From a virus (Duplodnaviria; Caudoviricetes): a DNA stretch of 40,037 nt. The notes under the pieces are model-generated. The model saw nothing but the letters and a program-made list of their open reading frames with translations. It ran no database searches and was not told the DNA's origin. This document shows positions 7,933-40,037 of the stretch, piece by piece (within the stretch, counting starts at the first letter, position 1; each line of letters opens with the position of its first letter). The translations under genes and the position numbers were made by a program. The stretch covers positions 1-40,037 of IMG/VR virus record IMGVR_UViG_3300029822_000027. One strand, written 5' to 3'.

Positions 7933-7943
7933 GAGCCCGAGCA

Positions 7944-8303
7944 ATGACGAACGCCCAGATCGCAGCCATCGCCGCAATCTCGGTTGGCCTCGCCGCCGGC
8001 GGGACCATCCTGCTCTCGTCGGGAGAGCCCGCAGTCGTCACCGCCGAGCATGTCGACGCGGGCCAGGCGCCCGCGGGCGCAGTCCTCCTCGTCGACAAGA
8101 GCACCGGCACGCACGGCTATCTCGCCGACGACGCGACCGGGCGCGCCCTGCTCGAGGCGGCGCTCGTGCTGCGCGGGCGTGAGCCGACGCGCATCGATCT
8201 GTTTCCGGCCGAGGCGTGCGAAAGCGGGCTCGGCTTCGAGGTCTTCGACGCGCTCGGCTACCAATCCGAATGTCTCCCGGCGGGCATCCTGCCGGCACCC
8301 TAA
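7944..8303 (+). CDS. Small protein with N-terminal hydrophobic anchor or signal
   Basis: SD AGGAG before ATG 7944; hydrophobic N-terminus; conserved in the diverged copy at 39818. Confidence 0.7.
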   Translation: MTNAQIAAIAAISVGLAAGGTILLSSGEPAVVTAEHVDAGQAPAGAVLLVDKSTGTHGYLADDATGRALLEAALVLRGREPTRIDLFPAEACESGLGFEVFDALGYQSECLPAGILPAP

Positions 8304-8327
8304 CGCAATCCCTGGAAGGATCACCCC

Positions 8328-9515
8328 ATGCGCCGAATCGCAGCCTTTCTATCCGCTCTACTCGTCTCGACTCCGGCCCTCGCCGACACCTTCACCGTGG
8401 GGGGCACGGTCAGTGGCTTGGCGGGATCCGGCCTCGTCCTACAGAACAACGCCGGCGACGACTTGACGATCGAAACCAATGGTACCTTCACCTTCGAGAC
8501 GGCGCTCGAGGATGAGGCAGCCTACGCCGTGACCGTCGAGACCCAGCCGGGCACGCCGACACAGACCTGCACTGTTGAGGCGGGCACCGGGGTCATCGCC
8601 ACGGCGAACGTGACCGACGTGGCGGTCACCTGCGTGACCGACAGCTTCACCGTGGGGGGCACGGTCAGTGGCTTGATGGGATCCGGCCTCGTCCTGCAGA
8701 ACAACGCCGGCGACGACTTGACGATCGAAGCCAATGGTGCCTTCGCCTTCGCCACGGCGGTTCTTAGCGGGGCCGCATACGCCGTGACCGTCGAGACCCA
8801 GCCGGGCACGCCGACACAGACCTGCACCGTGGAGGATGGGGCGGGCACCGTGGGCGGCGCGGCGGTTGCTGATGTCGCGGTCACCTGCGTCACCGACAGC
8901 TTCGACATCGGGGGCACACTGGTGGGGCTGGAGGCGGGCTCCGTAGTGCTGCAGAACAACGCCGGCGACGACTTGACGATCGAAGCCAATGGTGCCTTCG
9001 CCTTCGATACGGCGGTTCTCAGTGGTGTGGCATACGAGGTGACCGTCAAAACGCTGCCCACCGGGCACACCTGCACCGTGGAGGATGGGGTGGGCACCGT
9101 GGGCGGCGCGGCGGTTGCTGACGTGGCGGTCACCTGCGTGCGGACCACGGTTTGGTCTACCCCTGGCGGACCCTACCCGGCAGCCAAGGCGGCCTGCGCT
9201 ACCGGCTCCGAGCCGGCCCCGCTTCTGGCAACTGACGGGCTGTCGCTCGGCAACCTCAAGGGCGGATTCTCGGTCATCGTCGAGTCTGACGACGGGACCA
9301 CGAACCTGACCGCCGGCGGGAAACTGCTCGCCTACGCCTACCACCCGCTCACCGGATGGGTCCGCGTGCCCGACCTCGACTTGACGGTGAAGGACGCGAC
9401 CACGGCCCGATCGTGGTCCGGGTTTCAAGTGGTGGCGCCGATCGGTCGGATCGCCTTCGTCCCGAACGGGCTCGGGGCCGCAACCGCCGTGAACGTCTAC
9501 ATCACCGGGCGCTAG
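8328..9515 (+). CDS. Secreted protein with three 85-aa Cys-paired beta-rich repeats and a distinct C-terminal domain
   Basis: Signal peptide MRRIAAFLSALLVSTPALA|D; repeats FTVGGTVSGL..LVLQNNAGDDLTI..CTV..VAVTC; SD GAAGGA. Confidence 0.8.
   Translation: MRRIAAFLSALLVSTPALADTFTVGGTVSGLAGSGLVLQNNAGDDLTIETNGTFTFETALEDEAAYAVTVETQPGTPTQTCTVEAGTGVIATANVTDVAVTCVTDSFTVGGTVSGLMGSGLVLQNNAGDDLTIEANGAFAFATAVLSGAAYAVTVETQPGTPTQTCTVEDGAGTVGGAAVADVAVTCVTDSFDIGGTLVGLEAGSVVLQNNAGDDLTIEANGAFAFDTAVLSGVAYEVTVKTLPTGHTCTVEDGVGTVGGAAVADVAVTCVRTTVWSTPGGPYPAAKAACATGSEPAPLLATDGLSLGNLKGGFSVIVESDDGTTNLTAGGKLLAYAYHPLTGWVRVPDLDLTVKDATTARSWSGFQVVAPIGRIAFVPNGLGAATAVNVYITGR
8385..9140 (+). repeat. Three tandem ~255-bp intragenic repeats
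   Basis: Units start at 8385, 8640 and 8895; CAGAACAACGCCGGCGACGACTTGACGATCGAA is identical in all three. Confidence 0.95.
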
Positions 9516-18463: not shown

Positions 18464-18526
18464 CCTTGACGGGCGCGCCCGAACGATAGTATGGGAATCT
18501 GTGAAACCTTGACAGGAGCCGACGAA
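18464..18526 (+). promoter_or_regulatory. Promoter/RBS cassette, copy A
   Basis: CCTTGACGGG...TAGTAT...TCTGTGAA..ACAGGAGCCGAC; 44/60 ungapped identity to 24100-24159. Confidence 0.7.
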
Positions 18527-19272: not shown

Positions 19273-20289
19273 GTGTGGATCTTCCTACCGTCAACGTGCT
19301 GTCCCTCGCCACCGGAGCCGGCGGGCTCGACCTCGGCGTCCGAATGGCGCTCGGAGCTGCTCGCACGGTCTGTGCTGTCGAGATCGAAGCCTATGCCTGC
19401 GCGGTCCTGGCTGCGCGCATGGAAGAAGGGTGGCTGGACCCGTGCCCTGTTTGGACGGATCTGCGAACCTTCGACGGCAAGCCGTGGTGTGGAGTCGTGG
19501 ATCTCGTCACTGGCGGATACCCGTGCCAGCCGTTCTCTCTCGCCGGCAAGCGCCTCGGCGCCGACGACCCCCGGCACTTGTGGCCCCACGTCGCTCGCAT
19601 CGTGCGCGAGGTCGGACCCCGGTGGTGCTTCTTCGAGAACGTCGCCGGGCATCTTTCCTTGGGGTCCGACCTGGTGCTCCGAGAGCTGGGCGAAATGGGC
19701 TACCGCGTTGAAGCGGGACTCTTCACTGCGGCTGAAGTCGGCGCCCCGCACCGCCGGCAGCGGCTCTTCATCCTTGGGGAGCTGGCCAACACCCACGGCG
19801 AGCCTGACGAACGACGGGGAGAGCCCCGAGAGCTTCCTCGCGCGGGCCGAGCGGCTCAAAGCGAAGGGGGTCAACGGCAACGGGGCGGGGGTGCCGCTCA
19901 CGGTGGCCTGCAAGCAGTGGCCGACTCCGAGCGCGACCGACCACAAGGGATCGAGCCGGCCGGGGCAACGCCGGGGGCAACTCTCGGAGGCGGCCGAGCA
20001 GAAGTGGCCGACCCCGACCGTGGGCGACTCGAAGGCGGGCGGCGCGGCGGGGTACTCGACCGAGAGCGGCCGGCACTCCGGGGTGACGCTGACCGATGCG
20101 GCTGTTGGCCCCCGGGGCCCGCTGACCGCGCCGGATGGGCCGCCTTCCTCGAGCGGTTCCCGGGTGCTCAACCCGCTGTTCGTCGAGATGCTGATGGGCT
20201 GGGAGCCAGGGTGGACCGCCTGCGCCTGTGCGGCAACGGAGTCGTGCCGCAGCAAGCCGCCCACGCCTTCCGCTATCTCTGGGGCCTGA
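19273..20289 (+). CDS. Overprinted alternative-frame ORF: putative MTase beta subunit (WPTP repeats plus motif IX-like segment)
   Basis: Three WPTP repeats and RVLNPLFVEMLMGWEPGWT; open across the whole MTase gene; true start uncertain. Confidence 0.65.
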   Translation: MWIFLPSTCCPSPPEPAGSTSASEWRSELLARSVLSRSKPMPARSWLRAWKKGGWTRALFGRICEPSTASRGVESWISSLADTRASRSLSPASASAPTTPGTCGPTSLASCARSDPGGASSRTSPGIFPWGPTWCSESWAKWATALKRDSSLRLKSAPRTAGSGSSSLGSWPTPTASLTNDGESPESFLARAERLKAKGVNGNGAGVPLTVACKQWPTPSATDHKGSSRPGQRRGQLSEAAEQKWPTPTVGDSKAGGAAGYSTESGRHSGVTLTDAAVGPRGPLTAPDGPPSSSGSRVLNPLFVEMLMGWEPGWTACACAATESCRSKPPTPSAISGA

Positions 20290-20306
20290 TGCACCTGCTC
20301 GACTGA
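19275..20306 (+). CDS. C5-cytosine DNA methyltransferase, catalytic (alpha-like) frame
   Basis: Motifs I LATGAGG, IV GGYPCQPFS, VI FENV, VIII PHRRQRLF, X RLRLCGNGVVP; motif IX is not apparent in this frame. Confidence 0.92.
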   Translation: MDLPTVNVLSLATGAGGLDLGVRMALGAARTVCAVEIEAYACAVLAARMEEGWLDPCPVWTDLRTFDGKPWCGVVDLVTGGYPCQPFSLAGKRLGADDPRHLWPHVARIVREVGPRWCFFENVAGHLSLGSDLVLRELGEMGYRVEAGLFTAAEVGAPHRRQRLFILGELANTHGEPDERRGEPRELPRAGRAAQSEGGQRQRGGGAAHGGLQAVADSERDRPQGIEPAGATPGATLGGGRAEVADPDRGRLEGGRRGGVLDRERPALRGDADRCGCWPPGPADRAGWAAFLERFPGAQPAVRRDADGLGARVDRLRLCGNGVVPQQAAHAFRYLWGLMHLLD

Positions 20307-23861: not shown

Positions 23862-24068
23862 ATGACGCATCTCGAAGACCGGGGGCCGAACACCGCGGCC
23901 ATCCGGCACTTCCACAGCCGCGGGCTTTGCCCCCACTGCCGGCGGCCCCTGGAGCTTGGCGAGCCCGAGGGCGAGGGCCGCTGGGCTGCCTGCACGCGCT
24001 GCGGGCATCGGGTGCTTGCGCAGAAGCGCAGCGGCCTGCTTCGGCGCCTGCGGGAGCGGATGGCTTGA
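23862..24068 (+). CDS. Small zinc-ribbon protein
   Basis: CPHC..CTRC; start may instead be GTG 23844. Confidence 0.6.
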   Translation: MTHLEDRGPNTAAIRHFHSRGLCPHCRRPLELGEPEGEGRWAACTRCGHRVLAQKRSGLLRRLRERMA

Positions 24069-24099
24069 GCCCGACAATGCCCGCTTCCCCGCAGATAGG

Positions 24100-24163
24100 C
24101 CTTGACGGGAGCACCTGTTCAGGGTTATCGGATTCTGTGAATCCCAAACAGGAGCCGACACCC
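24100..24163 (+). promoter_or_regulatory. Promoter/RBS cassette, copy B, with GGATTC-TGT-GAATCC palindrome
   Basis: Homologous to 18464-18523; directly precedes the MT-A70 gene. Confidence 0.7.
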
Positions 24164-24721
24164 ATGCTGCATCTCAAGCCCGAAGGTGGATTTCAAATCA
24201 TCTACGCCGATCCGCCGTGGAGCTACGATGACAAGAGCTGCAGCGGCGCTGCGGAAGCCCACTACTCGACCATGAAGTTCGCTGACATCGCGGCGCTCCC
24301 GGTCGCCGACATCTGTGCGCCAGACGCGGCCCTCTTCCTCTGGGCGACATTCCCGAAGATCGAAGAGGCGCTCGCCCTCATTCCGAGGTGGGGCTTCACG
24401 TACAAAACCATCGCCTTCTCCTGGCTCAAGTTCTACTCGAGCGGCAAGCCCTTCTTCGGCCTCGGCCGATGGACCCGTGGCAACGTCGAGCCCTGCCTGC
24501 TCGCGGTGCGTGGCAAGCCGAAGCGGGTCTCGGCCTCCGTCTCGCAGATTGTCGCGCACGAGGTCACGCGACACAGTGAGAAGCCCCCGGTAGTGCGCGA
24601 GAAGATCGTCGAGCTGATGGGCGACACCCCCAGAATCGAGCTCTTCGCGCGCAGCGCTGCGCCTGGCTGGAAGGCTTGGGGCGCCGAGGCGCCTTGGCAG
24701 CCGGAGGACGTGCTGCTTTGA
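24164..24721 (+). CDS. MT-A70 family adenine methyltransferase
   Basis: IIYADPPW, LFLWAT, WGFTYKT, HSEKP, RIELFAR; SD AGGAG, ATG 24164. Confidence 0.92.
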   Translation: MLHLKPEGGFQIIYADPPWSYDDKSCSGAAEAHYSTMKFADIAALPVADICAPDAALFLWATFPKIEEALALIPRWGFTYKTIAFSWLKFYSSGKPFFGLGRWTRGNVEPCLLAVRGKPKRVSASVSQIVAHEVTRHSEKPPVVREKIVELMGDTPRIELFARSAAPGWKAWGAEAPWQPEDVLL

Positions 24722-29013: not shown

Positions 29014-29541
29014 ATGGTCGCGCGCTGGGAACCGAAGCCCATCACCGAAGTGAACGCCCCCGGGGAGCGATCCCCGGAGGCACTTGTGCAGGTGCTCGAA
29101 GCCCTGGGCGTGGAAACCGATCCGCGCTACCGGGCCGAGGGCCCGCGCACGTGGTGCAACATCGCCAACTGGGATGCAACCCGGGCCCTGGGATGCGAGG
29201 TTCCGCACTGGATCGGACTCGACGGCGCGCCGGCGAAGGTGGGCATGGGGCGCGAGCTCAACGCGAACGGCTCAATCCTCTGGCTGCGCGCGATGGGCCC
29301 CCGCTATGGCTGGCGCAAGGCGCCTGAGCACCTCGCCCGCGTGCTGGCTGGCGAGGGCAAGCCGGTGATAGTCGCGTGGGAGAACAAGGCCGGCGGCTCA
29401 GGCCACGTGGCGATGCTGCTGCCGCCCGCAGGGCCCGGCGCTGCCCTCGAGATCTGGCAGGCCGGGAAGACCAACTTTCGACGGGCGCCCCTCGTGCGCG
29501 GCTTCGGCCCGCGTCCGGTCGAATTCTTCGCGCACGACTAG
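29014..29541 (+). CDS. Putative endolysin, papain/CHAP-like cysteine peptidase
   Basis: TWCNI (Cys), GSGHVAML (His) and WQAG; followed by holin-like genes. Confidence 0.6.
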   Translation: MVARWEPKPITEVNAPGERSPEALVQVLEALGVETDPRYRAEGPRTWCNIANWDATRALGCEVPHWIGLDGAPAKVGMGRELNANGSILWLRAMGPRYGWRKAPEHLARVLAGEGKPVIVAWENKAGGSGHVAMLLPPAGPGAALEIWQAGKTNFRRAPLVRGFGPRPVEFFAHD

Positions 29542-29547
29542 GAGGCG

Positions 29548-30000
29548 ATGATGTCCGAAGTGATCACTTCCATCCTGCTCGCGTTCATCACGGCCCTCGT
29601 GCCCGTGGTGGGCATTGTCCTGAAGACCCTGGGGCAGAAGGCGGCCGAGCTCATCCAAGCCAAGGTGGACAATCAGACCGCCGAGGCGGCTTTGCTGCGC
29701 CTGACTGCTGCCGTGACCGATGCGGTCGGCGATGTCTATCAGGCCGAGGCCGGGGCCCTTAAGGAAGCGGCAGCCGATGGCAAGCTGACGCAAGAGGAAA
29801 AGGACCGGCTCAAGCAGATCGCGATTGACCACGCGAAGAGCTACCTGGGTAAGAAGGGCATCGCCATGCTGCTTGAGGTGCTCGGGTTCACCAGCGAGAA
29901 AGACCTCGACAAGGTCATCGCTGGCAAGGTCGACAAGGTGATCTACGACGCCAAGCGCGCCGGCTCGAATCGCATCGACCAGACCACGGCGGCCCTCTAA
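29548..30000 (+). CDS. Putative holin-like membrane protein
   Basis: N-terminal TM helix followed by a helical soluble part (EEKDRLKQIAIDHAKSYL), resembling LL-H-type holins. Confidence 0.55.
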   Translation: MMSEVITSILLAFITALVPVVGIVLKTLGQKAAELIQAKVDNQTAEAALLRLTAAVTDAVGDVYQAEAGALKEAAADGKLTQEEKDRLKQIAIDHAKSYLGKKGIAMLLEVLGFTSEKDLDKVIAGKVDKVIYDAKRAGSNRIDQTTAAL

Positions 30001-30023
30001 TCCAAGGGCAGGAAGGGGCCGCC

Positions 30024-30254
30024 ATGTGTGAAAACCCGGTATGCGCCCGTCGGTTCGACGAATCGGAGCGCCGGCTCGAGAAGCTCGAGAAAGACGACTG
30101 GCGCAAGGAGATCGGCGAGCTGCGCTCGGTGATCTTCGACCTCAAGGCGAGCCTGGCGAACCTCAACGGTCGGATGGTCGGATACCTCGCCGCGGCGGCC
30201 ATCCTCGCCAGCGTGCTTTCTGGCGTGGCTCAGTACGTGTTGCGCGTCAAGTAG
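30024..30254 (+). CDS. Small coiled-coil protein with C-terminal TM helix (lysis accessory-like)
   Basis: ERRLEKLE coiled coil followed by GYLAAAAILASVLSGVAQYVL. Confidence 0.6.
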   Translation: MCENPVCARRFDESERRLEKLEKDDWRKEIGELRSVIFDLKASLANLNGRMVGYLAAAAILASVLSGVAQYVLRVK

Positions 30255-30275
30255 AGATTGCCGTAGACTGTGCAG

Positions 30276-30427
30276 TGTCGGGAGGGGAACTACCGGCAAA
30301 CCGGCTCCCCTCCCACAAGCCCTCAGCGGCGGGCTCAAAGCCGCAAGCCATAGCGGGCCCGGCTCCCCGGACTACTCGCGGCGCGAATCGGACTTTCTTC
30401 CTTTTCGCCCGCTCGAGCGGGCAGGAG
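30276..30427 (+). promoter_or_regulatory. Structured leader of the major capsid gene (candidate cis-regulatory RNA)
   Basis: Two hairpins with ACUA/C internal loops, an H-type pseudoknot between them, and a 16-bp palindrome abutting SD AGGAG. Confidence 0.55.
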
Positions 30428-30435
30428 CCAAGCAG

Positions 30436-31302
30436 ATGGCGATCACGATTACCAAGGCCTACATCAAGACGTTCGAGAGCAACCTTCGGCACCTCGCGCA
30501 GCAGTCGCAGTCCCGGCTGCGGCAGTTCGTGACCGAGAAGGCCAAGGGCACCTCGAGCGACGCCTTCCCGCGCCTGGGTGCGCAGAGCATGACGGCGAAG
30601 AGCTCGGCCCGCACGGCGACCCCCGAGAACGACTCGGTCTGGTCCAACCGCGTCGCGACCCCGGCGACCTACCACGGGGGCGACACGGTCGAGCCCGAGA
30701 ACGTCGTGCAGATGCTCGTCGACCCGAGCTCGAACATCGCGCACGCGCTCGCGATGGCTGCGCGCCGGCAGGTCGACGACATCATCATCGCCGCGGCCGG
30801 CGGCAACGCGGCCGACGAGGCGGGCAACGCGAACGCCTTCCCGGCGGGGCAGACGGTCGGCGGGGCGACGCAGGATTTCGATTTCGACTTCGTCACGCAG
30901 GTGGCCGAGAAGTTCCTCAACAACGACATTGACCCCGACGTGCCGAAGGTCTTCGTCGTCTCGCCCAACTGCGTCAAGAAGATGCTCGCGATGACGCAGG
31001 CGACCTCGAACGACTACGTCAACGCCAAGGCGCTCGCCTCGACCGGCTTCGTCAACAGCTGGATGGGCTTCACCTGGGTGGTCTCCACCCGCCTGCCGCT
31101 GGCCGTCGACGCGACGCTGCAGCGGTACTGCTACGCCTTCACGAAGCAGGCGCTCGGCCTGCTCGTGGTCAAGGACATCTGGGCCCGCGTCGCCGAAGAC
31201 CCCACGAAGAGCTTCATGTGGCGGATCTACACCGCGATGACGATGGGCGCGGTGCGCGTCGAGGACGAGCACATCGTCCGGGCGCACATCCTCGAGAGCT
31301 AA
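30436..31302 (+). CDS. Major capsid protein
   Basis: AQQSQSRLR, DDIIIAAA, SNDYVN.KAL..G.V.SWMGFTW, TMGAVRVEDE; strongly biased codon usage. Confidence 0.9.
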   Translation: MAITITKAYIKTFESNLRHLAQQSQSRLRQFVTEKAKGTSSDAFPRLGAQSMTAKSSARTATPENDSVWSNRVATPATYHGGDTVEPENVVQMLVDPSSNIAHALAMAARRQVDDIIIAAAGGNAADEAGNANAFPAGQTVGGATQDFDFDFVTQVAEKFLNNDIDPDVPKVFVVSPNCVKKMLAMTQATSNDYVNAKALASTGFVNSWMGFTWVVSTRLPLAVDATLQRYCYAFTKQALGLLVVKDIWARVAEDPTKSFMWRIYTAMTMGAVRVEDEHIVRAHILES

Positions 31303-31350
31303 CCGCCGGGCGGCCCTCCGTGATCCTCCGGGGCCGCACGCCGGTTTGCC

Positions 31351-31386
31351 TGGAGACTCCCGGGCCCTGTCCCCCGGGAGTCTCCA
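31351..31386. other. Perfect 14-bp hairpin downstream of the capsid gene
   Basis: TGGAGACTCCCGGG/CCCGGGAGTCTCCA; no U tract, so possibly an mRNA-stabilising or processing stem. Confidence 0.65.
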
Positions 31387-31414
31387 ACTACTACCAGGAC
31401 ACGAGGCCCAACCG

Positions 31415-31660
31415 ATGCGGGACTACCTGATCATGCTGGATGACGTGAAGGCGCGCACCCTCGCCGAGCAGGGCGCGAGCGCCGAGGAGATTACCGAGGC
31501 GCTCGTCAAGGGTGGCGTGGATGCCCGCAAGGCGAAGAGCGCAGCGGTGGCATACCTCGAGGCCGCCAAGAAGGGCAAGAAGCCCGAGGCGAAGACGCCC
31601 AAGGCGCCCAAGGGCAAAGCCGATGGCGAGGGCGAGAAGGCCGCCGACCCGCTTGCCTAG
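31415..31660 (+). CDS. Small Lys/Ala-rich protein
   Basis: ATG 31415 with SD GAGG; MRDYLIMLDD..KKGKKPEAKTPK. Confidence 0.7.
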   Translation: MRDYLIMLDDVKARTLAEQGASAEEITEALVKGGVDARKAKSAAVAYLEAAKKGKKPEAKTPKAPKGKADGEGEKAADPLA

Positions 31661-31687
31661 TCAACCCCTGCCGGATAGAGGCGCACC

Positions 31688-32434
31688 GTGAACAACGTCG
31701 AGATCTGCAATCTGGCCCTGAGCTGGCTTGGCGAGCCGCAGATCACGGCGCTGACCGATGCGACCCCGGCCGCCCGGCTGTGCAACGCGCTGTTCGCTTC
31801 GACGCTCCGGGCCCTTCTCGCCGAACGGGAATGGTCCCGGGCGATCGCCTGGCAGGTGCTCACCCCCGAGGCCGAGGCGCCGGGAAACCCGCGCTTCGAG
31901 CAGCAGTTTGTCGTGCCCGCCGGAACCCTGCGCGTGCTCGAAGTGGTGGCGCTTGATGAGGTGCCCGCCGGGGCTTCGGATCCGGTGGGCCCGGTCGTCG
32001 GTTTCGGGGGCGGGTTCGCTGCGCTCCTCGAGGCGGACACCGACGTTGCCGCCGGCCCCATCGAATTCACCGGCACCGAGTATGACGATGGGACGGGCTA
32101 CAGCGCGGATGCCGGGCGCTACACCGTTGGCCGATCCGGCCGCTGGCGGGTCTCGGCGCAGGTCGAAGTCGCCGGGCTCACCCCGAGTGATTCGGTGCGC
32201 GTCGACATCTACCGCAACGGCACGCTCGCCCTGCGGGGGACGCTCGGGGCTCCGGTGGTCGACGACGAGGCGGACACCAGTTATTCGGCCGGCTCACGTT
32301 GCGAGGCGGTTCTGCTGCTGGAGTCTGGCGACTACCTCGAAGCGCGACTCGCTGCGCAGACCGACGCTCCGGTGATCACCCTGCGTGCCGGGGGCACGCG
32401 GTTTGAGGCGCAGCTGCTGGCGCTCGTGGGATAA
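31688..32434 (+). CDS. N-terminal half of tail tubular protein A (adaptor) fused to a C1q-like domain
   Basis: VEICNLALSWLG..AARLC..W..A..LRVLEV, then IEFTGTEYDDG.GY..GRYTV.RSGRWRVSAQV..IYRNG..LLLESGDYLE..TRFEAQLL. Confidence 0.75.
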   Translation: MNNVEICNLALSWLGEPQITALTDATPAARLCNALFASTLRALLAEREWSRAIAWQVLTPEAEAPGNPRFEQQFVVPAGTLRVLEVVALDEVPAGASDPVGPVVGFGGGFAALLEADTDVAAGPIEFTGTEYDDGTGYSADAGRYTVGRSGRWRVSAQVEVAGLTPSDSVRVDIYRNGTLALRGTLGAPVVDDEADTSYSAGSRCEAVLLLESGDYLEARLAAQTDAPVITLRAGGTRFEAQLLALVG

Positions 32435-32436
32435 CT

Positions 32437-33642
32437 ATGAAGAAGCTCGGAATTATCCTCTTTTTGGTCTGCTCGGCGGTTGCGGCTTTCGTGCTGACAC
32501 CCGCAGCGGTCGAGGCTTGGCCCTCGGTGTTCTTGCGGTCGAGGTCGCCTACCGGGGCCTACTCGGTGAGCGAAGCGACCGGCACCGCGAGTGCCTGGCA
32601 ATTCGACGCGACGAACGCGGCGCACGAGGGGGCGCTCGCGACCTTCGAGCGCGACGGCACGGCGCGGGCGGCAATCGAGCAGGATGGCGCGGTGAGGGTC
32701 GGCTCGGTGGCGTCGGTCGATCTGCGCTCGGGCTGCTCTAGCGGTGAGCTCGTCTGGGACTCCACTACCGCCCGGCTCAAGCTGTGCGTGGATGGGGCGT
32801 GGGTGTCGCTGCCGCAGTACGCGGCGAGCGGGCTTCAAGTCGTCAATGGCACGGTCACCTGCTCGACGGCAGGCCCGGGGCAGATCGGCTGTCTGACTGC
32901 GGCTGCACAGACGATCGCCGGGGCGAAAACCTTCTCCGACCCGATCACCGGCGACCTAATCGGCAACGCTGACACCGCGACTGCGCTCGCCTCGGCGCCG
33001 ACGACATGCTCGGCGGGGCAGTACGCGACCGGCATTGACACGAGCGGGAACGCTCAGGGCTGCACGGCCGAGACTGACACTCTGGCCGCACTGAGCTGCA
33101 ATAACAATGAGTTCGCGCAGCGCGGGGTATCCGCCTGGGTGTGCGGAGCGACGGCGCCCAAGGCGACCGAGCTCGAGAAGAACGGCACCAACTGCAACGC
33201 GGGGTACTACGCCCGCGGGGTGAGCGCGACTGGGGCGGCCGAGTCGTGTTCGGCGGACCTCAACACGACCTACACCGCGGCCTCGCCGCTCGGGCTGTCG
33301 GGCACAAAGTTTCAACTCTCGGCTTGTGCCGATGGGGAGCATCTCGTCTACCGGGGCACGGCCTGGGCGTGCGAGCCGGCCGGCGGGCAATTCGTCGGAG
33401 TCTGCAAGCCCAGCGTATCGGCATTGGCCGCCCCCGCGTGCGAAACGAAGTCGTGCTCGGCCACAGGATTGACCGCCGGCCACCTGATCCTGGCGACGCT
33501 CCAGGAGGCGACCGACGATCTGGCGCTCGTGCGCGCCTGGTCTGGCACCGATGCAGTAAACCTTCGGTTTTGTAGTCGCCGGCTCGACGGGTCGACGACG
33601 GCGCAAGACCCCAAGGTCTTTTGGTCCGCGCACAACGAATAG
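32437..33642 (+). CDS. Cys-rich tail-fibre-like protein with signal peptide
   Basis: MKKLGIILFLVCSAVAAFVLTPAAVEA|W; fibre motifs QTIAGAKTF and GNADTATAL; repeated C.AG.YA.G....G....C; about 17 Cys. Confidence 0.75.
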   Translation: MKKLGIILFLVCSAVAAFVLTPAAVEAWPSVFLRSRSPTGAYSVSEATGTASAWQFDATNAAHEGALATFERDGTARAAIEQDGAVRVGSVASVDLRSGCSSGELVWDSTTARLKLCVDGAWVSLPQYAASGLQVVNGTVTCSTAGPGQIGCLTAAAQTIAGAKTFSDPITGDLIGNADTATALASAPTTCSAGQYATGIDTSGNAQGCTAETDTLAALSCNNNEFAQRGVSAWVCGATAPKATELEKNGTNCNAGYYARGVSATGAAESCSADLNTTYTAASPLGLSGTKFQLSACADGEHLVYRGTAWACEPAGGQFVGVCKPSVSALAAPACETKSCSATGLTAGHLILATLQEATDDLALVRAWSGTDAVNLRFCSRRLDGSTTAQDPKVFWSAHNE

Positions 33643-33651
33643 GGAGCAGCG

Positions 33652-33972
33652 ATGGCGGGCTCGACCACTGACTGGGTGCTGGAGGGCGACCGGATCTTGA
33701 CCAGCGGCGCGGCCGCGGTAGCCGTGCGCTCGCTCGTGCCCGTCAATGCCGAGGATCTGCCCGAATACATGGCGCAGGCCCTCGCCGCTCGAATCGCGAG
33801 CGCGCTCGCCATTCCACTGACCGAAAACCGCGCGCTGCAGGCCGACTACTGGGGGCTCTATCAGCAGCTCCTGCGCGAAGCCGCGGCGCTCGACGGGCTG
33901 CAGGGACGGACCCGGCCACTCAACTCCACTGCGTTCGGCTACGTCGCCGCTGCGGGCCGGGGGAGGCGCTAG
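33652..33972 (+). CDS. C-terminal half of tail tubular protein A (adaptor)
   Basis: WVLEGDRILT..AQALAARIASALAIPLTEN..Y...L.EA..LDG.QG; own SD GGGAG and ATG. Confidence 0.75.
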   Translation: MAGSTTDWVLEGDRILTSGAAAVAVRSLVPVNAEDLPEYMAQALAARIASALAIPLTENRALQADYWGLYQQLLREAAALDGLQGRTRPLNSTAFGYVAAAGRGRR

Positions 33973-36198
33973 ATGCGCGCCGAGCCCATCCAGACGAGCT
34001 TCGCCGGCGGCGAGCTCTCTCGGCGCCTGCGGGGAAGGCTGGATCTCGAGGGGTATCGGGCCGGGCTCGCGCGCTGCGCCGACTGGCAGCCGACCCCGCA
34101 GGGCTCGGTCCGCACCAGGCCCGGCACCCGATACGCGAGCGCCCGCGCTGGAGACGGCCGACTCTTCGTGCTGCCGGTGCAGGGCCGGCACGGCTACCTC
34201 GTCGAGCTGAACCACCAGCAGCTCGTCATCCACAACGCCGACGGGCTGCTCGAGCGCCCGGGGCAGGAGGACACTGGAGACTCCGAGCTCGTGCGGAACG
34301 GGCTCTTCGCCGATGCCGCGGGGGTCTTCTGGGAGAGCAGCTACGACCCGGACCCGGAGAAGTGGGGCGAAGGGGGTACCGGCGTGGTGGCCGGCAACTA
34401 CAACGATCTGCACCTGCTTGACCAGGATGTCTGGGCCGCAAAGATCGGGCTCAACGGCATCCTGCAGCAGCAGGTGACCGTGCGCGAAGCTGGCGCGCAC
34501 CGGCTCCGGTTCTCAGCCCTCTGGGCGGATGCGTCGTACCTGACCGTCACCGTGGGCACGACCGACGGCGGGAGTGATCTCTACTCGATCACCCTGTCGG
34601 CTGCTACCCTGGCATCGATCACCAACAGCGCCGACCGAGGCGAGCTGACATTCGAGGCGACCATCACGATCCCCGCGGGCACCCCCACGGTTTGGATCCG
34701 CTTCGCTCAGACGCTCTGGAGCTATCCGCCGCTCAGTCTCGATCCGAGCTGGAACATCACCGGGGTGAGCCTGCACACACCGACCGGGAACAAAACGCTC
34801 TTCGCTCCCTACCTCTACGAGGATCTCCCCGCCGTGCAGGCGGTACAGGAGCCCGAGCGCGACGCGATCATCTTTCTCCATCCGCGCTATCCGCCGCACG
34901 TGCTGCGCCTCGACCAATATGGGCAGTGGACCCTACAGAAGGCGATGTGGGCCGGCACGCCCGAGGCTTGGAACGAGCGCAGCTATCCGGCCTGCGGCTG
35001 CATCTGGCAGGGCCGGCTCTGGCTGTCGGGCGCTCCTGGAAGCCCGGCAACGATCTGGGCTTCATGCTCGGGTGAGATCTACAACCTGACCGTCGGGGCG
35101 AACGCCGACGATGGGCTCGAGCTGATTCTCGTAACCCGGGGCGCGGTTCGCTGGCTCGCCGGGCAGCAGGCGCTGCTCGTCGGCACCGACCGAGGAGAGC
35201 ACAGCCTCTCGGCGCAGGGCGGGCTTGTCACCCCGGCTGATTTTCACGTGCGCGATGAGTCGGCCTTCGGTTCGGCCGACGCGCCGGCGCTGCTCCTCGG
35301 CGGGCAGCTCGTCTATCTCTCGCGCGACGCTCGCAAGCTGCGGGCGGTCTCCTTTGACCTCAACGCGGATGCCTGGGCGAGCGCGGATCTCACCTTCGCC
35401 GGTGAGCACCTCACAACCCCCGGGGTGCGCGAGCTCGCCTTCGCCGGGGATCCCGACGGGGTGATCTTGGCGCTGCTCGAGGATGACACCCTCGCGTGTT
35501 GCTCCTACGACCGGGGCGCGCGGGTTGCAGCTTGGTGGACGCTTACTCTCCCGGCGACAGTGGAGGCCTTCGGACACGCTCAGGCCCTCGCCGTGGCGGT
35601 CTCGGACGGGCCCGATGGGTCGGTCGCATGGCTTGCGGTCAACCGCACCCGATGGACCGGCACGCCGGGCGACAGTACCCCCGCGGTGGCAATGACGATC
35701 GAGGCGCTGCGCTTTGGTGCGGCGGGCCCGGTCGTCGACTGCGCCCACGTGGTCGAGGCTGACGACTCCAACGTCTTCGCGGCCCCCGGTCTAGTCGGGC
35801 AACAGGCCACGGTGGCGGTCAACGGGGTGCCGCTCTCGGGCACCTACCCGGTGATTGACGGGGATGTGACCATCCCGAACCCGGCGACCGGCACCGTCGA
35901 GATCGGGGTGGGGTTCACCCCGACGCTCGAGACCCTGCCGCCGCTTGGGCCCCAAGGCGAGCTGCGCCGCTGGCCGAAGGTGATGCTGCGCCTCACCGAG
36001 AGCGGGCTTCCGCTCGTCAACGGCGAAACCCTCGACGTGCGCCCGGGGCGCTCGGGCCCGGTCGAGCCGGTCACCGGCGACTTCTCAACTCGGCAGCTCG
36101 GGCATGATAGCGATGGGCAGGTCACCATCACGCAACCCCGGCCGATCGCGACCGAGATCCTGGCCATCTTCGGGGTGCTCACCGGACACGGGGTCTAG
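33973..36198 (+). CDS. Tail tubular protein B (nozzle) with an inserted CBM-like domain
   Basis: IQTSFAGGELS..L.GR.DL..Y, PQG...RPGT, YPACGCIWQGRLW, C-terminal GQVTITQPRP..ILAI. Confidence 0.88.
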   Translation: MRAEPIQTSFAGGELSRRLRGRLDLEGYRAGLARCADWQPTPQGSVRTRPGTRYASARAGDGRLFVLPVQGRHGYLVELNHQQLVIHNADGLLERPGQEDTGDSELVRNGLFADAAGVFWESSYDPDPEKWGEGGTGVVAGNYNDLHLLDQDVWAAKIGLNGILQQQVTVREAGAHRLRFSALWADASYLTVTVGTTDGGSDLYSITLSAATLASITNSADRGELTFEATITIPAGTPTVWIRFAQTLWSYPPLSLDPSWNITGVSLHTPTGNKTLFAPYLYEDLPAVQAVQEPERDAIIFLHPRYPPHVLRLDQYGQWTLQKAMWAGTPEAWNERSYPACGCIWQGRLWLSGAPGSPATIWASCSGEIYNLTVGANADDGLELILVTRGAVRWLAGQQALLVGTDRGEHSLSAQGGLVTPADFHVRDESAFGSADAPALLLGGQLVYLSRDARKLRAVSFDLNADAWASADLTFAGEHLTTPGVRELAFAGDPDGVILALLEDDTLACCSYDRGARVAAWWTLTLPATVEAFGHAQALAVAVSDGPDGSVAWLAVNRTRWTGTPGDSTPAVAMTIEALRFGAAGPVVDCAHVVEADDSNVFAAPGLVGQQATVAVNGVPLSGTYPVIDGDVTIPNPATGTVEIGVGFTPTLETLPPLGPQGELRRWPKVMLRLTESGLPLVNGETLDVRPGRSGPVEPVTGDFSTRQLGHDSDGQVTITQPRPIATEILAIFGVLTGHGV

Positions 36199-36200
36199 CC

Positions 36201-36581
36201 ATGTTTCCAGCGATGGCCGCGGCAAGCTGGGCTCTGCAGTCGATTAGCGCCGGGCTGGACTACTCCGGCAAGCTGCGCCAGGCCGGCGAGCGGCAAGGCG
36301 TGCTAGACGAGCGGATGCGCCGGCTCCGAGCGCAGCAGGAGCAGGTGGTCGGGCAGGCGCGGGCCGCTGGTGCTGCCTCGGGCGTGCGCCCGGGCTCGGC
36401 GAGCCTGCAAACCTACCTCTCCGAGATGCAGGCCGAATTCGCGCGACAGGCCGAATGGGATCGCGCGAGCGGCCAGCGGGCGATTGACCGGGCGAACACC
36501 TCCGCCGGAATCGGCTTCGCCGGCGACATGGTCAGTGCGATGTTCTCCTTTGGGCAGCAAACAAACTGGTGGAAGAGGTAA
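36201..36581 (+). CDS. Internal virion protein (T7 gp14-like position)
   Basis: GQARAAGAASGV..GS motif; A/G/Q-rich; synteny. Confidence 0.7.
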   Translation: MFPAMAAASWALQSISAGLDYSGKLRQAGERQGVLDERMRRLRAQQEQVVGQARAAGAASGVRPGSASLQTYLSEMQAEFARQAEWDRASGQRAIDRANTSAGIGFAGDMVSAMFSFGQQTNWWKR

Positions 36582-36585
36582 TCCG

Positions 36586-38451
36586 ATGCGCTTGCCGGGT
36601 ATCAGCTACGAGCGGGCGGTCTCGGACTCCTCGGCGAGCGCGGCCGCGCCTGAGGCGCTCTCGAAGACCTCGCAATCGATCGCTCAAGGGCTCGAGGCGT
36701 TCGGGCGGGAGCTCGTGCGCACACAGATGATGCAGGCGCGGGCGCGCCTCTCCTCGAGCCTCGACGAGATCGATCGAGACCTGAGCGGCAAGCCCTATGT
36801 CTCGGCAAAGGAGATCCGCGATGCGCTCGGCGACGACATCGAGCGGCTGCCCCCAGGCGTGCGCGAGATGCTCGAGGTGACGACCCCGAGCGGTGAGAAG
36901 GTCGACAATGACCAGATCCCGACCTGGGCGGTTCGCGGCGCGCTCTTCGAGCGGCGCGCTTCGGCCGCGCTCGACTCGGCCGCCGGCGGGGTGACCGCTA
37001 TGGGCTGGCGGGAGGAATTCAAGGCCTCGTCGCAGTCGGCGCTGCAGGAGCGCCGACACAGGCTCAACCAGACCGCGGCAAAGGAGATGCTCGAGTACCA
37101 ACAGAAGACGCAAGGGCAGAGCTTGCGGCTCCAGATGAACACCGCCACGACCCCGCAGGAGTGGTGGGGCGAGGGTGGGATCCACGCGCAGATTGACGAG
37201 TCGCAAGCCCTCGATCCTGCGCAGAAGGATGCCCTGCACGCCGAGGCGCGAAAGACCGAGCAGATCCGGCCGACGCTGGACGCGCTGCGCGAGTGGGATG
37301 AGGAGGGGATGCGGCGTGAGCGTGACCGGCTCAACGATGAGAAGCAGCTCCCCGACGTGGACCCCGAGACCCGCCGGGCGATGGTGCGACAGCTCGAGGC
37401 GCAGATCGGCGCGCTCGACAAGGCGAAGAAGCCCGAGAACCAGCCCGACCCGAAGAAGATCGCCTATGAGCAGGCGATGGGGCAGATGCAACAACTCGTG
37501 CTCGACCGGGAGCGCGGAGGGCAGCCGCTCGGGCCCGCCGACGAGATGACCCTGCTCGGGTTGATGCCCAAGGCGATGGACCTGCACCCGAAGGACTGGG
37601 ATTCGATGCGGGACTTCGTCAAGGAGCTGACGACCGGCTCGGAGATGAAGACTGATGATCTGACATACCTCGCGCTCTATCGGGCCTATGCGAGCGATCC
37701 CGAGGGGTTCAAGAGCGGGAAGGGCTTCACGTACACCGACCCGCGCACCGGCAAGGAGCGCACCGGCGCCAAGCTGCAGGACTTCTTCAGCCGGCTCGCA
37801 GGCCCCGACCGGCAGGAATTTGTGCGCCTCGCCTTCGGGTCCGACAAGGGCGTCAACGTCAACGTCAACGTCAACAACGGGCCGCTCTCGGACATGGATC
37901 TCGTGCGGTCCGGGCTGCGAGAGTACGGCTTCGACCTTGACGCGAAAAACGAGAGGAAGCAGGGCGCGGCCGCCGCAGCGCTGCGGCTCGTCAACACGGG
38001 ATTGGCGAACGCCGCAAGCGCCAAGGGCGCGCCGCTGACCGAGGATGAGAAGAGCGCGACCATCCGTCGCGTGCTCAAGTCGAACACGAAGAGGGTCTCG
38101 AGTTGGTTCGGCCCCGATGTCTACGTCTTCAAGGACTCCGAGGCCCCGCCCGAGATCGTTCAAGGCGTGCGCGACATGGCCCGGGCCCGCGGGGTGACCA
38201 TCGGTGATGCCGATGTCGAGGACTACGCGAAGTTCTACATCGAGCAGGAAGAGGCCATCGATAAGGCCTGGGGAGAGGTCTCCCGGGGCGCGCCGCTCGA
38301 CATGCAGAAAGGCGCGGATCTGCTCTGGGAGCTCCAGCGCAACCGGGTTGAAGGCCAGCTCGACAAGGCGATCCGGGGGCAAGGCAAGGATCCAGATGAT
38401 AGGCTGCGGGCACTGACCGCTGCCCGACTCATCGCCAACCGGAGCCGCTGA
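36586..38451 (+). CDS. Internal virion protein (gp15-like position)
   Basis: ATG 36586, MRLPGISYER; helical; lies between the small internal protein and the giant ejection protein. Confidence 0.7.
   Translation: MRLPGISYERAVSDSSASAAAPEALSKTSQSIAQGLEAFGRELVRTQMMQARARLSSSLDEIDRDLSGKPYVSAKEIRDALGDDIERLPPGVREMLEVTTPSGEKVDNDQIPTWAVRGALFERRASAALDSAAGGVTAMGWREEFKASSQSALQERRHRLNQTAAKEMLEYQQKTQGQSLRLQMNTATTPQEWWGEGGIHAQIDESQALDPAQKDALHAEARKTEQIRPTLDALREWDEEGMRRERDRLNDEKQLPDVDPETRRAMVRQLEAQIGALDKAKKPENQPDPKKIAYEQAMGQMQQLVLDRERGGQPLGPADEMTLLGLMPKAMDLHPKDWDSMRDFVKELTTGSEMKTDDLTYLALYRAYASDPEGFKSGKGFTYTDPRTGKERTGAKLQDFFSRLAGPDRQEFVRLAFGSDKGVNVNVNVNNGPLSDMDLVRSGLREYGFDLDAKNERKQGAAAAALRLVNTGLANAASAKGAPLTEDEKSATIRRVLKSNTKRVSSWFGPDVYVFKDSEAPPEIVQGVRDMARARGVTIGDADVEDYAKFYIEQEEAIDKAWGEVSRGAPLDMQKGADLLWELQRNRVEGQLDKAIRGQGKDPDDRLRALTAARLIANRSR
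37852..37878 (+). repeat. In-frame hexamer microsatellite (GTCAAC)4
   Basis: Encodes VNVNVNVNN. Confidence 0.85.
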
Positions 38452-38453
38452 CC

Positions 38454-39806
38454 ATGCCGACGACGCCCGATCCGTACCTGCAGGCCGCTTCCGAAGCGGT
38501 CGGCGGCCCCTCCGACGACACGCTGCGCGAGCTCGTAGCGGCGCAGGATGCCGCTCGCGAGGTGGCGCCCGACGAGGCGCAGAAGGCCTATCGGCAGGCC
38601 GCACGCGAGCAGATGCCCTTCGGCATGGCACTCGACCGGCTGCGCGCCGACCCGAAGCGCGAGGGGCACGACTGGCAGAAGCTCGCGAAGGATGCGCCCA
38701 CGCTTGCGCGAGTCGTCGCCGAGGATGACGGGTTCGCCGCGGCGGCGCAGCGCGACGTCGAGAAGCTCTCGCGGCTCGAGCAGCTCGTGCGCGGGGTCAA
38801 GAACAGTCGTGGTGCCGAGCTCGCGAAGACCGCCGGCAAGGCTCTCGAGGGCGCGACCTCGGCGCCCGAGGCGGTCTATCACCGTGCGGCGCAGGGGCGC
38901 CGGGTAGACCAGATCGGATCTCTCGCCTGGCAGCAGGTGATGGGCGACGCTTCGCCCGAGGTCGAGAAGCTCGTCGCCGAGCTCGAGAAGGCGAACAGCG
39001 CCGCATGGAACCCGAAGCTGGGCTTTGTAGCCGGGATGGCCCCGGCGGCGGCCGAGCAGCTCGCGATGATGACCGGGCGCCTTGAGCGATCGGCAGACCT
39101 CGCCATCGGCGGCTTGCTCGGCGGCGCGGCCGCTGGCGCCGCGGCGGGCTCGGCGGCCCTCGGTGTGGGCGCCGTCCCTGGCGCGGCGGCGGGCTCTCTC
39201 GCCTTCAACGACCCTGTCCGCTTCCTCTCGACCACGACCGCGCTGCTGGAGTCGTCGACTGCGGCGACCAGCGGCACGGACACCGCGTTTACACTGCGCC
39301 CGCTTGTCGAACTCAGTGGCGCCGACCGCATCCTTGATGTCGTCGACCACGCGGGCACGTCGCGATTTTATGTCACTCCTGCCGGGTCGATCGTGAACTC
39401 TGGCAGTGCGACACTCGGCACAGTCAGCAGTGCACTCTATGGAGTGGCCGGAGACAATCCGGTAGTTGTCAGGGGATCGAAGGTTGACGGCGCATCCGCC
39501 GTCGGCGTTCGAGTCGGGAATCTCAATACTCTTACAACTGCTGGCAGCAAGGTCGCTGCCTTCTGCGCCGACAACCCGACAACCTGCGCTTCCGAGGTCG
39601 CTTCGATCGGCTACGACGGCGCGGCGACCTTCGCCGGTCGCGTCTCTGGCGCGGGCGTGCAGGCAGTCGCGGGCACCGAGCCGACCTGCGACGAGTCCGC
39701 CCGCGGCCTGATCTGGACCGTGGCAGGCGGCGCAGGCGTGGCCGATACGGTGAAGGTCTGCGCCAAGGACGCCGGCGACGCGTTCGCATGGCGCACCATC
39801 TACTAG
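38454..39806 (+). CDS. Chimeric ORF: N-terminus of the giant ejection protein (38454-39194) fused in frame to a diverged copy of the 6958 fibre C-terminus
   Basis: Helical N-part ends in Gly/Ala-rich GVGAVPGAAAG, then SLAFND...FAWRTIY collinear with 7321-7932. Confidence 0.7.
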   Translation: MPTTPDPYLQAASEAVGGPSDDTLRELVAAQDAAREVAPDEAQKAYRQAAREQMPFGMALDRLRADPKREGHDWQKLAKDAPTLARVVAEDDGFAAAAQRDVEKLSRLEQLVRGVKNSRGAELAKTAGKALEGATSAPEAVYHRAAQGRRVDQIGSLAWQQVMGDASPEVEKLVAELEKANSAAWNPKLGFVAGMAPAAAEQLAMMTGRLERSADLAIGGLLGGAAAGAAAGSAALGVGAVPGAAAGSLAFNDPVRFLSTTTALLESSTAATSGTDTAFTLRPLVELSGADRILDVVDHAGTSRFYVTPAGSIVNSGSATLGTVSSALYGVAGDNPVVVRGSKVDGASAVGVRVGNLNTLTTAGSKVAAFCADNPTTCASEVASIGYDGAATFAGRVSGAGVQAVAGTEPTCDESARGLIWTVAGGAGVADTVKVCAKDAGDAFAWRTIY

Positions 39807-40037
39807 GAGTCATGGCTATGACGAACGCGCAAATTGTCGCAATCTCGGCCTCGCTCGTCGTCGCTGTGGGCGGCGGAGTGTTGCTGTCCTCGGGCGAGCC
39901 GGCGACCATCACCGATGCGCATGTCGACGCGGGCCAGGCGCCCGAGGGCGCGATTACCCTCGTCAACAAGTCGACTGGCGAGCGTGGCTATCTCGCGGAC
40001 GACGCGACCGGCCGCGCGCTGCTCGAGGCGGCGCTCG
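39192..40037 (+). repeat. Diverged direct copy of 7318-8166
   Basis: Collinear at offset 31874 with one codon indel; 16 mismatches in the first 120 nt counted by hand; many third-position changes. Confidence 0.95.
39818..40037 (+). CDS. Partial homologue of the 7944-8303 protein (runs off the window)
   Basis: MTNAQIVAISAS..HVDAGQAPEGA..GYLADDATGRALLEAAL. Confidence 0.8.
   Translation, partial: MTNAQIVAISASLVVAVGGGVLLSSGEPATITDAHVDAGQAPEGAITLVNKSTGERGYLADDATGRALLEAAL

Follow-up and report, generated by a model that had tools for sequence, protein, structure and literature searches.

Genome Organization

The locus studied here raises the question as to whether the tail adaptor, the essential ring which seals the packaged head of the phage and carries its fibres, can be built from the products of two separate genes, and if so, what the DNA lying between these genes contributes to the virion. 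The window, i.e. the whole 40,037-nt stretch of DNA analyzed here, corresponds to the genome of an uncultured podophage of the ZP6 / VP2 / HTVC010P / Carin-1 type with a GC content of 68%. A single late operon includes the terminase, portal, scaffold, lysis, capsid, adaptor, nozzle, and internal virion protein genes, and replication genes were also identified in the genome on the basis of profile matches. All the features described below are on the + strand. As regards the genes flanking the locus, the major capsid protein gene (30436-31302) matches PF19821 (E 2.2e-51), its product showing 52.5% identity to that of Alteromonas phage ZP6, and the nozzle (tail tubular protein B) gene (33973-36198) matches phrog_376 (E 5e-85). 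No promoter or terminator consensus was found in the region 31200-34100.

In a contig of run X1, which is the likely source run, base 39202 runs on into base 1 of the window, so that the genome closes as a 39,208-nt circle, and this closure completes, in frame, a 2,570-aa virion protein. The size of the circle fits that of a recorded 39,335-nt contig, which is 127 nt longer, the extra 127 nt being what a circular overlap would give. Bases 39203-40037 of the window are an assembly chimera: the segment 39192-40037 is an 83% copy of 7318-8166.

The Two Halves of the Adaptor

Three consecutive ORFs occupy the locus. The first one (31688-32434) has a GTG start and a TAA stop and encodes a 248-aa protein; the second one (32437-33642) encodes a 401-aa protein and ends with TAG; the third one (33652-33972) starts with ATG, encodes a 106-aa protein, and abuts the nozzle gene. 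In a first-pass annotation based on the sequence alone, it was proposed that 31688-~31945 codes for the first half of an adaptor resembling T7 gp11, and that the missing second half is encoded by 33652-33972, which would have its own Shine-Dalgarno site and ATG. Both of these assignments agree with the results of the profile searches. In PHROG 394 (tail protein, 190 positions), the first ORF matches positions 2-88 (E 4.5e-18) and the third ORF matches positions 94-179 (E 2.3e-9), and in our own profile based on 97 intact adaptors, the two halves cover positions 1-90 and 94-183, respectively. The halves therefore correspond to consecutive parts of one and the same adaptor profile, with no overlap and with about 3 positions unaccounted for, and the full phrog_394 profile is matched only by the two ORFs jointly and not by either of them singly. 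The single polypeptide characteristic of the T7 gp11 / Carin-1 family is replaced here by two ORFs 1.7 kb apart, and the position of the gene typical of the family, downstream of the capsid gene and directly upstream of the nozzle gene, has been kept. No second adaptor gene was detected in the closed genome, the only two adaptor matches in the window being the halves themselves.

The secondary structure of the halves was read from the model of P0015, the closest intact relative. The N-half (aa 1-88; 31688-31951), which also matches the 8CK1 connector (E 7e-6), would contribute bundle helices 1-2 along with the three initial strands of the fibre-dock sheet, and the three final strands, helices 3-4, and the C-terminal arm would come from the C-half. 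In the P0015 model (pLDDT 93.8), which matched the Carin-1 connector 8CK1 (E 1e-12, TM 0.79) as well as T7 gp11, the helix bundle, the beta dock, and the C-terminal arm of the adaptor family are all predicted to be present, and the break loop lies between strands 80-87 and 97-100. T7 gp11 forms a dodecamer in which every subunit has an embracing helix in addition to a bundle of four helices and a fibre dock of five strands (PMC6702177). As the split assigns two bundle helices and three strands to one chain, leaving the other chain with what remains of the fold, independent folding of either chain seems unlikely.

The loop at profile position 91 carries 247 inserted residues across 50 of the 97 intact adaptors, and its length ranges from 7 to 31 residues (SD 5.1), as compared with SDs of 0.6-1.9 in the case of four other loops. 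The break therefore coincides with the most length-variable loop of the adaptor family, within the fibre-dock domain, in keeping with the initial proposal that about 1.7 kb had been inserted into a surface loop. When the N-half (aa 1-100) and the C-half were co-folded, as this proposal had called for, the predicted complex scored 0.67, versus 0.01 in the best of 3 controls, the mark used being one reached by 51 of the 78 solved pairs and 2 of the 108 mismatched pairs tested; since the halves of split genes tend to pass because of their likeness to solved structures, this score, which may reflect a likeness to solved intact adaptors, is a measure of compatibility and not of binding. The runs agreed in at least 92% of the contacts, with a partner pLDDT of at least 74. 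In the predicted complex the two halves interlock, the helix bundle and the dock sheet each being made up of segments from both chains.

Assembly of the Junctions and Second Strain

Misassembly was considered before any other alternative, given that one end of the window is chimeric. The junctions were checked on assembled contigs rather than raw reads. One Logan contig of run X1 shows 0 differences with the region 29948-39202, but since X1 is the likely source run, this match does not amount to independent data. In run X2, which comes from another study (2020), a single 8,449-nt contig is collinear with the window across both junctions, the identity being about 90% in the N-half and 96% from 33166 on, and run X4, from the same study as X2, has the same right-hand junction. 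Runs X3 and X5 were left out as evidence, the former having given only short pieces and the latter only fragments which fail to bridge the junctions. The phage is present in two studies carried out six years apart, and the split layout, both junctions of which (near 31945 and 33650) are spanned by contigs of X1 and X2, is not a misassembly.

The X2 contig defines a second strain (strain 2). Its fusion of the N-half with the downstream domain (P0003) is likewise 248 aa long and 87% identical to that of the window; its counterpart of the 401-aa protein (P0160, 339 aa) lacks one 62-aa repeat, and its C-half protein shows no amino-acid change.

Maintenance of Both Halves

In the C-half gene, all six nucleotide differences between strain 2 and the window are synonymous, whereas 27% synonymous differences would be expected by chance (p about 4e-4). 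In the N-half, 30 nucleotide differences result in 7 amino-acid changes, giving a p value between 2e-8 and 4e-4, depending on the assumptions made. These patterns indicate that both halves are under purifying selection in the two strains. The changes affect 7 of the 88 residues of the N-half versus 23 of the 143 residues (aa 106-248) of the C1q region downstream in the same ORF, although this greater variability is not significant (p 0.11).

The Shine-Dalgarno site of the C-half (33641-33646), which overlaps the upstream TAG, has a pairing energy of -8.2 kcal/mol, as compared with a median value of -2.4 and a 10th percentile of -5.3 among 65 internal ATGs, and reaches -9.3 in strain 2, where there is one change in this site. 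The TAG, the ATG, and the strong ribosome-binding site are all kept in strain 2. The selection detected and the starts and stops retained in both strains are consistent with the impression, originally gained by inspection, that the two halves are intact rather than decayed, and indicate that this is a real two-gene adaptor under selection.

The C1q Domain Fused to the N-half

The N-half is followed by a linker of about 20 aa leading from the dock loop to the next domain (31952-32014), where the model confidence is low; the adaptor profile stops at aa 90 and the similarity to P0014 starts at aa 96. This places the left junction of the insert at about 31950-31975, the boundaries being approximate. 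A putative C1q/TNF-fold domain then extends in frame with the N-half up to the TAA (32015-32434). In the first ORF, the last 140 aa (~110-248) were modeled as a C1q/TNF jelly roll (pLDDT 62.6, TM about 0.5), and the PDB matches shown all belong to the TNF or C1q family (best E 4.2e-5), viral structures being matched as well. The Pfam match obtained in this region is weak (BclA_C, E 0.064, 13.6 bits versus a cut-off of 38). These fold-search matches, along with a model of moderate confidence, favour the earlier suggestion that the N-half runs into a C1q/TNF-like domain up to the stop.

The closest relative among the matches listed is P0014, the C-terminal domain of which is 45% identical over aa 96-247. 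This 275-aa protein combines a T7-type fibre N-terminus, alignable with the docking domains of fibres from four cultured phages, with a C1q-like C-terminus; both of its Pfam matches are below the cut-offs (21.6 versus 23.7 in the case of C1q), and four remoter matches exceed the C1q cut-off. Since its closest relative is a T7-type fibre with a C1q tip, the domain is most likely a fibre tip which has lost its own anchor. No match with this domain was found among the cultured phages, and none of the 13 distant loci recovered in the C1q alignment has an adaptor match.

The 401-aa Protein and Other Fibre-like Genes

The second ORF (32437-33642) codes for a fibre-like protein containing 17 cysteines and a 62-aa repeat unit, together with a repeat motif of a type known from fibre shafts; its N-terminus (aa 1-27) is a putative Sec-type signal peptide. 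The signal peptide (hydropathy 3.28, 2 basic residues, AxA-like end) is kept in P0160, and a similar signal-like N-terminus is present in most of the 13 distant homologs of this protein. No Pfam, PHROG, NCBIfam, or PDB family and no match among the cultured phages were found for the 401-aa protein, and its Atlas matches are all under 0.9. That a fibre gene lies between the halves, as previously noted, is therefore correct as far as the ORF is concerned, and its sequence features make the product a candidate secreted fibre.

In ZP6, VP2, and Carin-1, a docked fibre or spike gene occupies the slot following the giant virion protein gene. The matching slot in the present genome (6958-9515) carries three ORFs coding for 324-, 119-, and 395-aa proteins with hydrophobic, signal-like N-termini, none of which matched the fibre N-terminal docking profile. 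The fibre-like genes remaining in the genome thus all appear to carry export signals.

A T7 gp17-type docking domain is present in the fibre or spike of all four cultured relatives (ZP6, VP2, HTVC010P, and Carin-1). The docking-domain profile, which was seeded on these four fibres and P0014, recovered 4 further loci beyond the seed. In the window, no docking domain was detected at E values of up to 5 after a second profile round, a search which a very diverged form could escape; PF03906, which is a weak detector in this phage group, likewise had no match in the genome.

In the assembly of tailed phages, an exported protein cannot join the cytoplasm-built tail in the usual way. Since the signal-bearing proteins would be excluded from this pathway, the candidates for host contact made in the cytoplasm would be the C1q domain borne by the dock loop and perhaps an unannotated part of the nozzle.

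Distribution of Split and Decorated Adaptors

All 103 other loci with an adaptor match keep one ORF across the break loop. These loci (53 + 47 + 3 new ones in a third set) include many near duplicates, and 18 loci with no adaptor match were left out of the count; the DNA fetched around the capsid genes of loci L114-L117 contained no adaptor. Since the search patterns were drawn from the N-half, split alleles could have been caught. The comparison between split and intact alleles in related phages, which the first-pass annotation had also recommended, yielded the split only in the second strain, so that this organization is known from two strains of one phage. No relative was confirmed when viral contigs, among which records close to this genome may be missing, were scanned with each of the halves, with the 401- and 324-aa proteins, or with the C-terminus of the giant protein, and a search with the C-half among proteins of 58-186 aa, a range that leaves out longer forms, recovered only the C-half itself.

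Among the 150 representatives listed of the 816 found at E 0.001, five stop at or before the loop (P0022, P0090, P0093, P0143, and P0149). All five were set aside. Two of them have ends which we take to be translations of sequencing adapters, and one of these two clusters with a 191-aa protein; two more have unrelated tails and come from short contigs (569 and 1,205 nt). There may be a second true split among these five representatives.

Decorated adaptors are already known to exist. In P0018, P0024, P0034, P0030, P0035, P0075, L053, and L098, inserts of about 50-310 aa occur in frame in the dock loops, at profile positions 58-65 or 108-113 (that of P0075 being less clearly placed), and those of P0035 and P0075 include CBM5/12. 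Tandem adaptor repeats also occur in the family. Unlike the present locus, the insert-bearing adaptors of these uncultured phages consist of one in-frame chain, and their inserts are not located at 90-94.

A Probable Two-chain Adaptor Displaying a C1q Head

The explanation which best accounts for these data, and to which we assign a probability of roughly 0.74, is that the adaptor subunit is composed of two chains and displays a C1q domain. The single adaptor gene would have been split into two separately started genes, the products of which probably refold into one subunit, and the outer loop of the refolded adaptor would carry the C1q domain derived from a fibre tip as a host-binding or fibre-docking head. 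The event at the origin of this layout may have been the entry into the loop of a piece of a fibre locus, made up of the terminal (3') part of a T7-type fibre gene and the gene following it: a single illegitimate recombination would have fused the C1q domain to the N-half, and the C-half would have restarted at its own ATG. Twelve heterodimers would then form the ring, and the twelve C1q domains, borne by 20-residue linkers, could group as four trimeric knobs; no such symmetry, in which a 12-fold ring bearing four trimers sits on a 6-fold nozzle, was found in the literature consulted.

The C1q head is predicted to help the phage to grip its host. If the head is displayed, there is about an even chance that it binds the receptor directly; that it serves as a dock for exported fibres or is simply a tolerated passenger are two equally tentative alternatives. 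Since the C1q domain is akin to a fibre tip and no adaptor-docking fibre gene was found, the domain would seem to replace the usual fibres rather than being added to them. A more elaborate version, which we regard as doubtful, is that there are no fibres docked in the cytoplasm and that the C1q knobs are sockets for exported, disulfide-matured fibres picked up at or after lysis. The exported fibres would then be the products of the 401-aa gene and the signal-peptide genes in 6958-9515, and the virion would be completed outside the cytoplasm, which is equally doubtful.

Alternative Explanations

If the insert were removed, by DNA excision, a self-splicing intron, ribosomal bypass, or a split intein, a one-chain adaptor would be restored, and the almost exact complementarity of the halves and the short in-frame 5-nt matches between the junction regions are what might be expected in this case. 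The insert is coding from end to end, however, and no relevant Rfam match was obtained in 31300-34300 apart from one chance-level miRNA match. No group I/II intron was recognizable in terms of a ribozyme core or an endonuclease or maturase match in Rfam, Pfam, or PHROG. The longest direct word common to the junctions is only 6 nt long and out of frame, the genome has no match with the two families of tyrosine recombinases and resolvases searched, no intein was matched in Pfam or NCBIfam, no contig skips the insert, and a strong Shine-Dalgarno site of its own precedes the C-half in the two strains, all of which make removal of the insert unlikely.

That a working two-chain adaptor might have arisen from two different adaptor genes, via recombination followed by the loss of the redundant halves, we hold to be just as unlikely. 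The partner would in this case have been a phage with fibre genes just upstream of its adaptor, and fibre genes do occur directly upstream of the adaptor in loci L067 and L108. The half-length trees also differ, the N-half and the C-half being placed in different clades with supports of 0.82 and 0.85. But 16 of the 47 branches are common to both confidence sets, so that tree placement does not reject a single origin; P0015 is best or joint best in terms of identity for both halves (51% and 47%), and two events both ending in the same loop would be needed. An origin of this kind would alter the history of the adaptor and not its working model.

It is improbable, to a greater degree than the two foregoing explanations, that readthrough of the upstream TAG joins the 401-aa fibre to the C-half in a fusion protein that would hold the fibre on the ring. 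The ATG of the C-half does indeed continue the reading frame of the fibre gene, from the TAG of which it is separated by three sense codons, and the change present in these codons in strain 2 is silent in that frame. These three codons also double as the ribosome-binding site, however, and the export signal of the fibre would carry the fusion out of the cytoplasm. Among the late genes checked, 10 of 19 end with TAG, more than with any other stop, so that this codon is not recoded.

The idea of a defective or helper-dependent phage, the broken adaptor of which would be supplied by a co-infecting relative, carries no greater weight than readthrough. The presence of related phage DNA at higher depth in the same run and the failure to find a conventional fibre gene speak in its favour, whereas the purifying selection, with starts and stops kept across a nucleotide divergence of about 10% at the left junction, the presence of terminase, portal, capsid, nozzle, and replication genes, and the occurrence of the phage in two studies six years apart argue against it. 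Lastly, an assembly artefact, which might be suspected in view of the proven chimeric end (39203-40037), is scarcely credible, given that the junctions are spanned both in another assembly of the probable source run and in a diverged strain from another study, and that the fused N-half/C1q protein is recorded on contigs of both 39,335 and 39,860 nt.

Comparison with Known Systems

The two-chain adaptor proposed here resembles T7 gp11 and the Carin-1 connector (8CK1; phrog_394, PF17212) in its sequence and fold family and its location between the capsid and nozzle genes. The latter proteins are single chains of ~190-220 aa on which six trimeric fibres are docked, whereas the adaptor of the present phage is encoded by two genes. 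Here the break disrupts the dock as well as the bundle and is the point at which the C1q domain is attached, and the search for fibres with a docking domain gave no match. The p14 protein of Vibrio phage VP2 (741 aa, C-terminal Ig domains, phrog_9239) is also a related adaptor displaying a surface domain, but it is one chain with a C-terminal extension, and VP2 retains a conventional fibre (p20). In Pseudomonas podophage A1002, a nozzle split into gp39 and gp42 and extra proteins decorating the adaptor dock have been described; the split there concerns the nozzle, however, the adaptor gp47 being one chain (PMC13730344). In HTVC010P-like pelagiphages, C1q domains located near the fibre gene have been proposed, on the basis of read recruitment, to be variable host-recognition modules, but these domains are encoded by separate genes and not fused to the adaptor (PMC3909814). 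A split RNA polymerase has also been reported in pelagiphages (PMC6811365). Neither a two-gene split adaptor nor exported phage fibres were found in the titles and abstract openings of the literature.

What would be new here is that the closest relative of the C1q domain, among the matches listed, appears to be the tip of a T7-type tail fibre, and that the fibre-docking domain of the 4/4 cultured relatives was not found in the closed 39.2-kb circle. If the proposed structure is correct, a natural, selected split through a folded core would mean that an adaptor subunit can assemble from two chains, and the break loop would be a site able to accept entire domains and even entire genes. Given that no conventional fibre gene was detected, this phage might provide a compact test case for the transfer of host recognition onto the neck ring, as well as a concrete candidate socket for the signal-peptide fibres of uncultured phages. 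The two halves are small enough to be suitable for in vitro work with no need to culture the phage.

Closure of the genome and the giant internal virion protein

The last stretch of the window (39203-40037) is an assembly chimera: it is an 83% copy of 7318-8166, comes from a relative and has been joined into the giant virion gene. In the contig from run X1, the likely source of the window, base 39202 runs on into window base 1, and the circle closes at 39,208 nt. The 450-aa fusion of LPD22 with a fibre apparent in the window is not real. The giant internal virion protein (about 2,570 aa) is encoded by 38454-39202 plus 2-6958, and carries LPD22 at its start and the ADP-ribosyltransferase domain ART-PolyVal (E 1e-27).

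Late genes and tail modules

Four late genes, located at 6958-9515 and 32437-33642, encode proteins with hydrophobic, signal-like N-termini, which in three of the four cases show clear AxA-type ends together with 7-17 cysteines. The 395-aa product of one gene of the 6958-9515 group contains three 85-aa repeats. The diverged second strain showed about 85-90% identity with the window upstream of about 33166 (from the capsid to mid-fibre), as against 96% downstream; judging from these sequences, a recombination breakpoint is likely at about 33166, within the 401-aa gene.

The nozzle gene includes a region of about 200 aa (34258-34848) between its two phrog_376 stretches, for which a Pfam search gave no match and which is a possible receptor-binding tip.

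Among the adaptor-related proteins and comparison loci, tandem adaptor domains (2-6 per polyprotein) were observed in P0006-P0013, P0025, P0028, P0012 and P0030, and in L068, L079 and L112, some of these polyproteins also carrying pectate-lyase-like or CBM5/12 domains. In the cultured Vibrio phage VP2, the adaptor (p14; L120:4330-6555) is extended by about 550 residues, in which Ig domains are found. The tail module is rearranged at L067:1024-6591, where a nozzle-like gene is followed by two genes with fibre docking domains and then by the adaptor.

Other genes and repeats

DNA methyltransferase genes are present at 19273-20306, where two overlapping frames each match methyltransferase families, and at 23927-24721. 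A 60-nt repeat (18464-18523 and 24100-24159; 73% identity), starting with TTGACG, might serve as a phage promoter. Between the scaffold and capsid genes lie a holin-like gene and two neighbours (29014-30254), one of which, carrying no annotation, probably encodes an endolysin.
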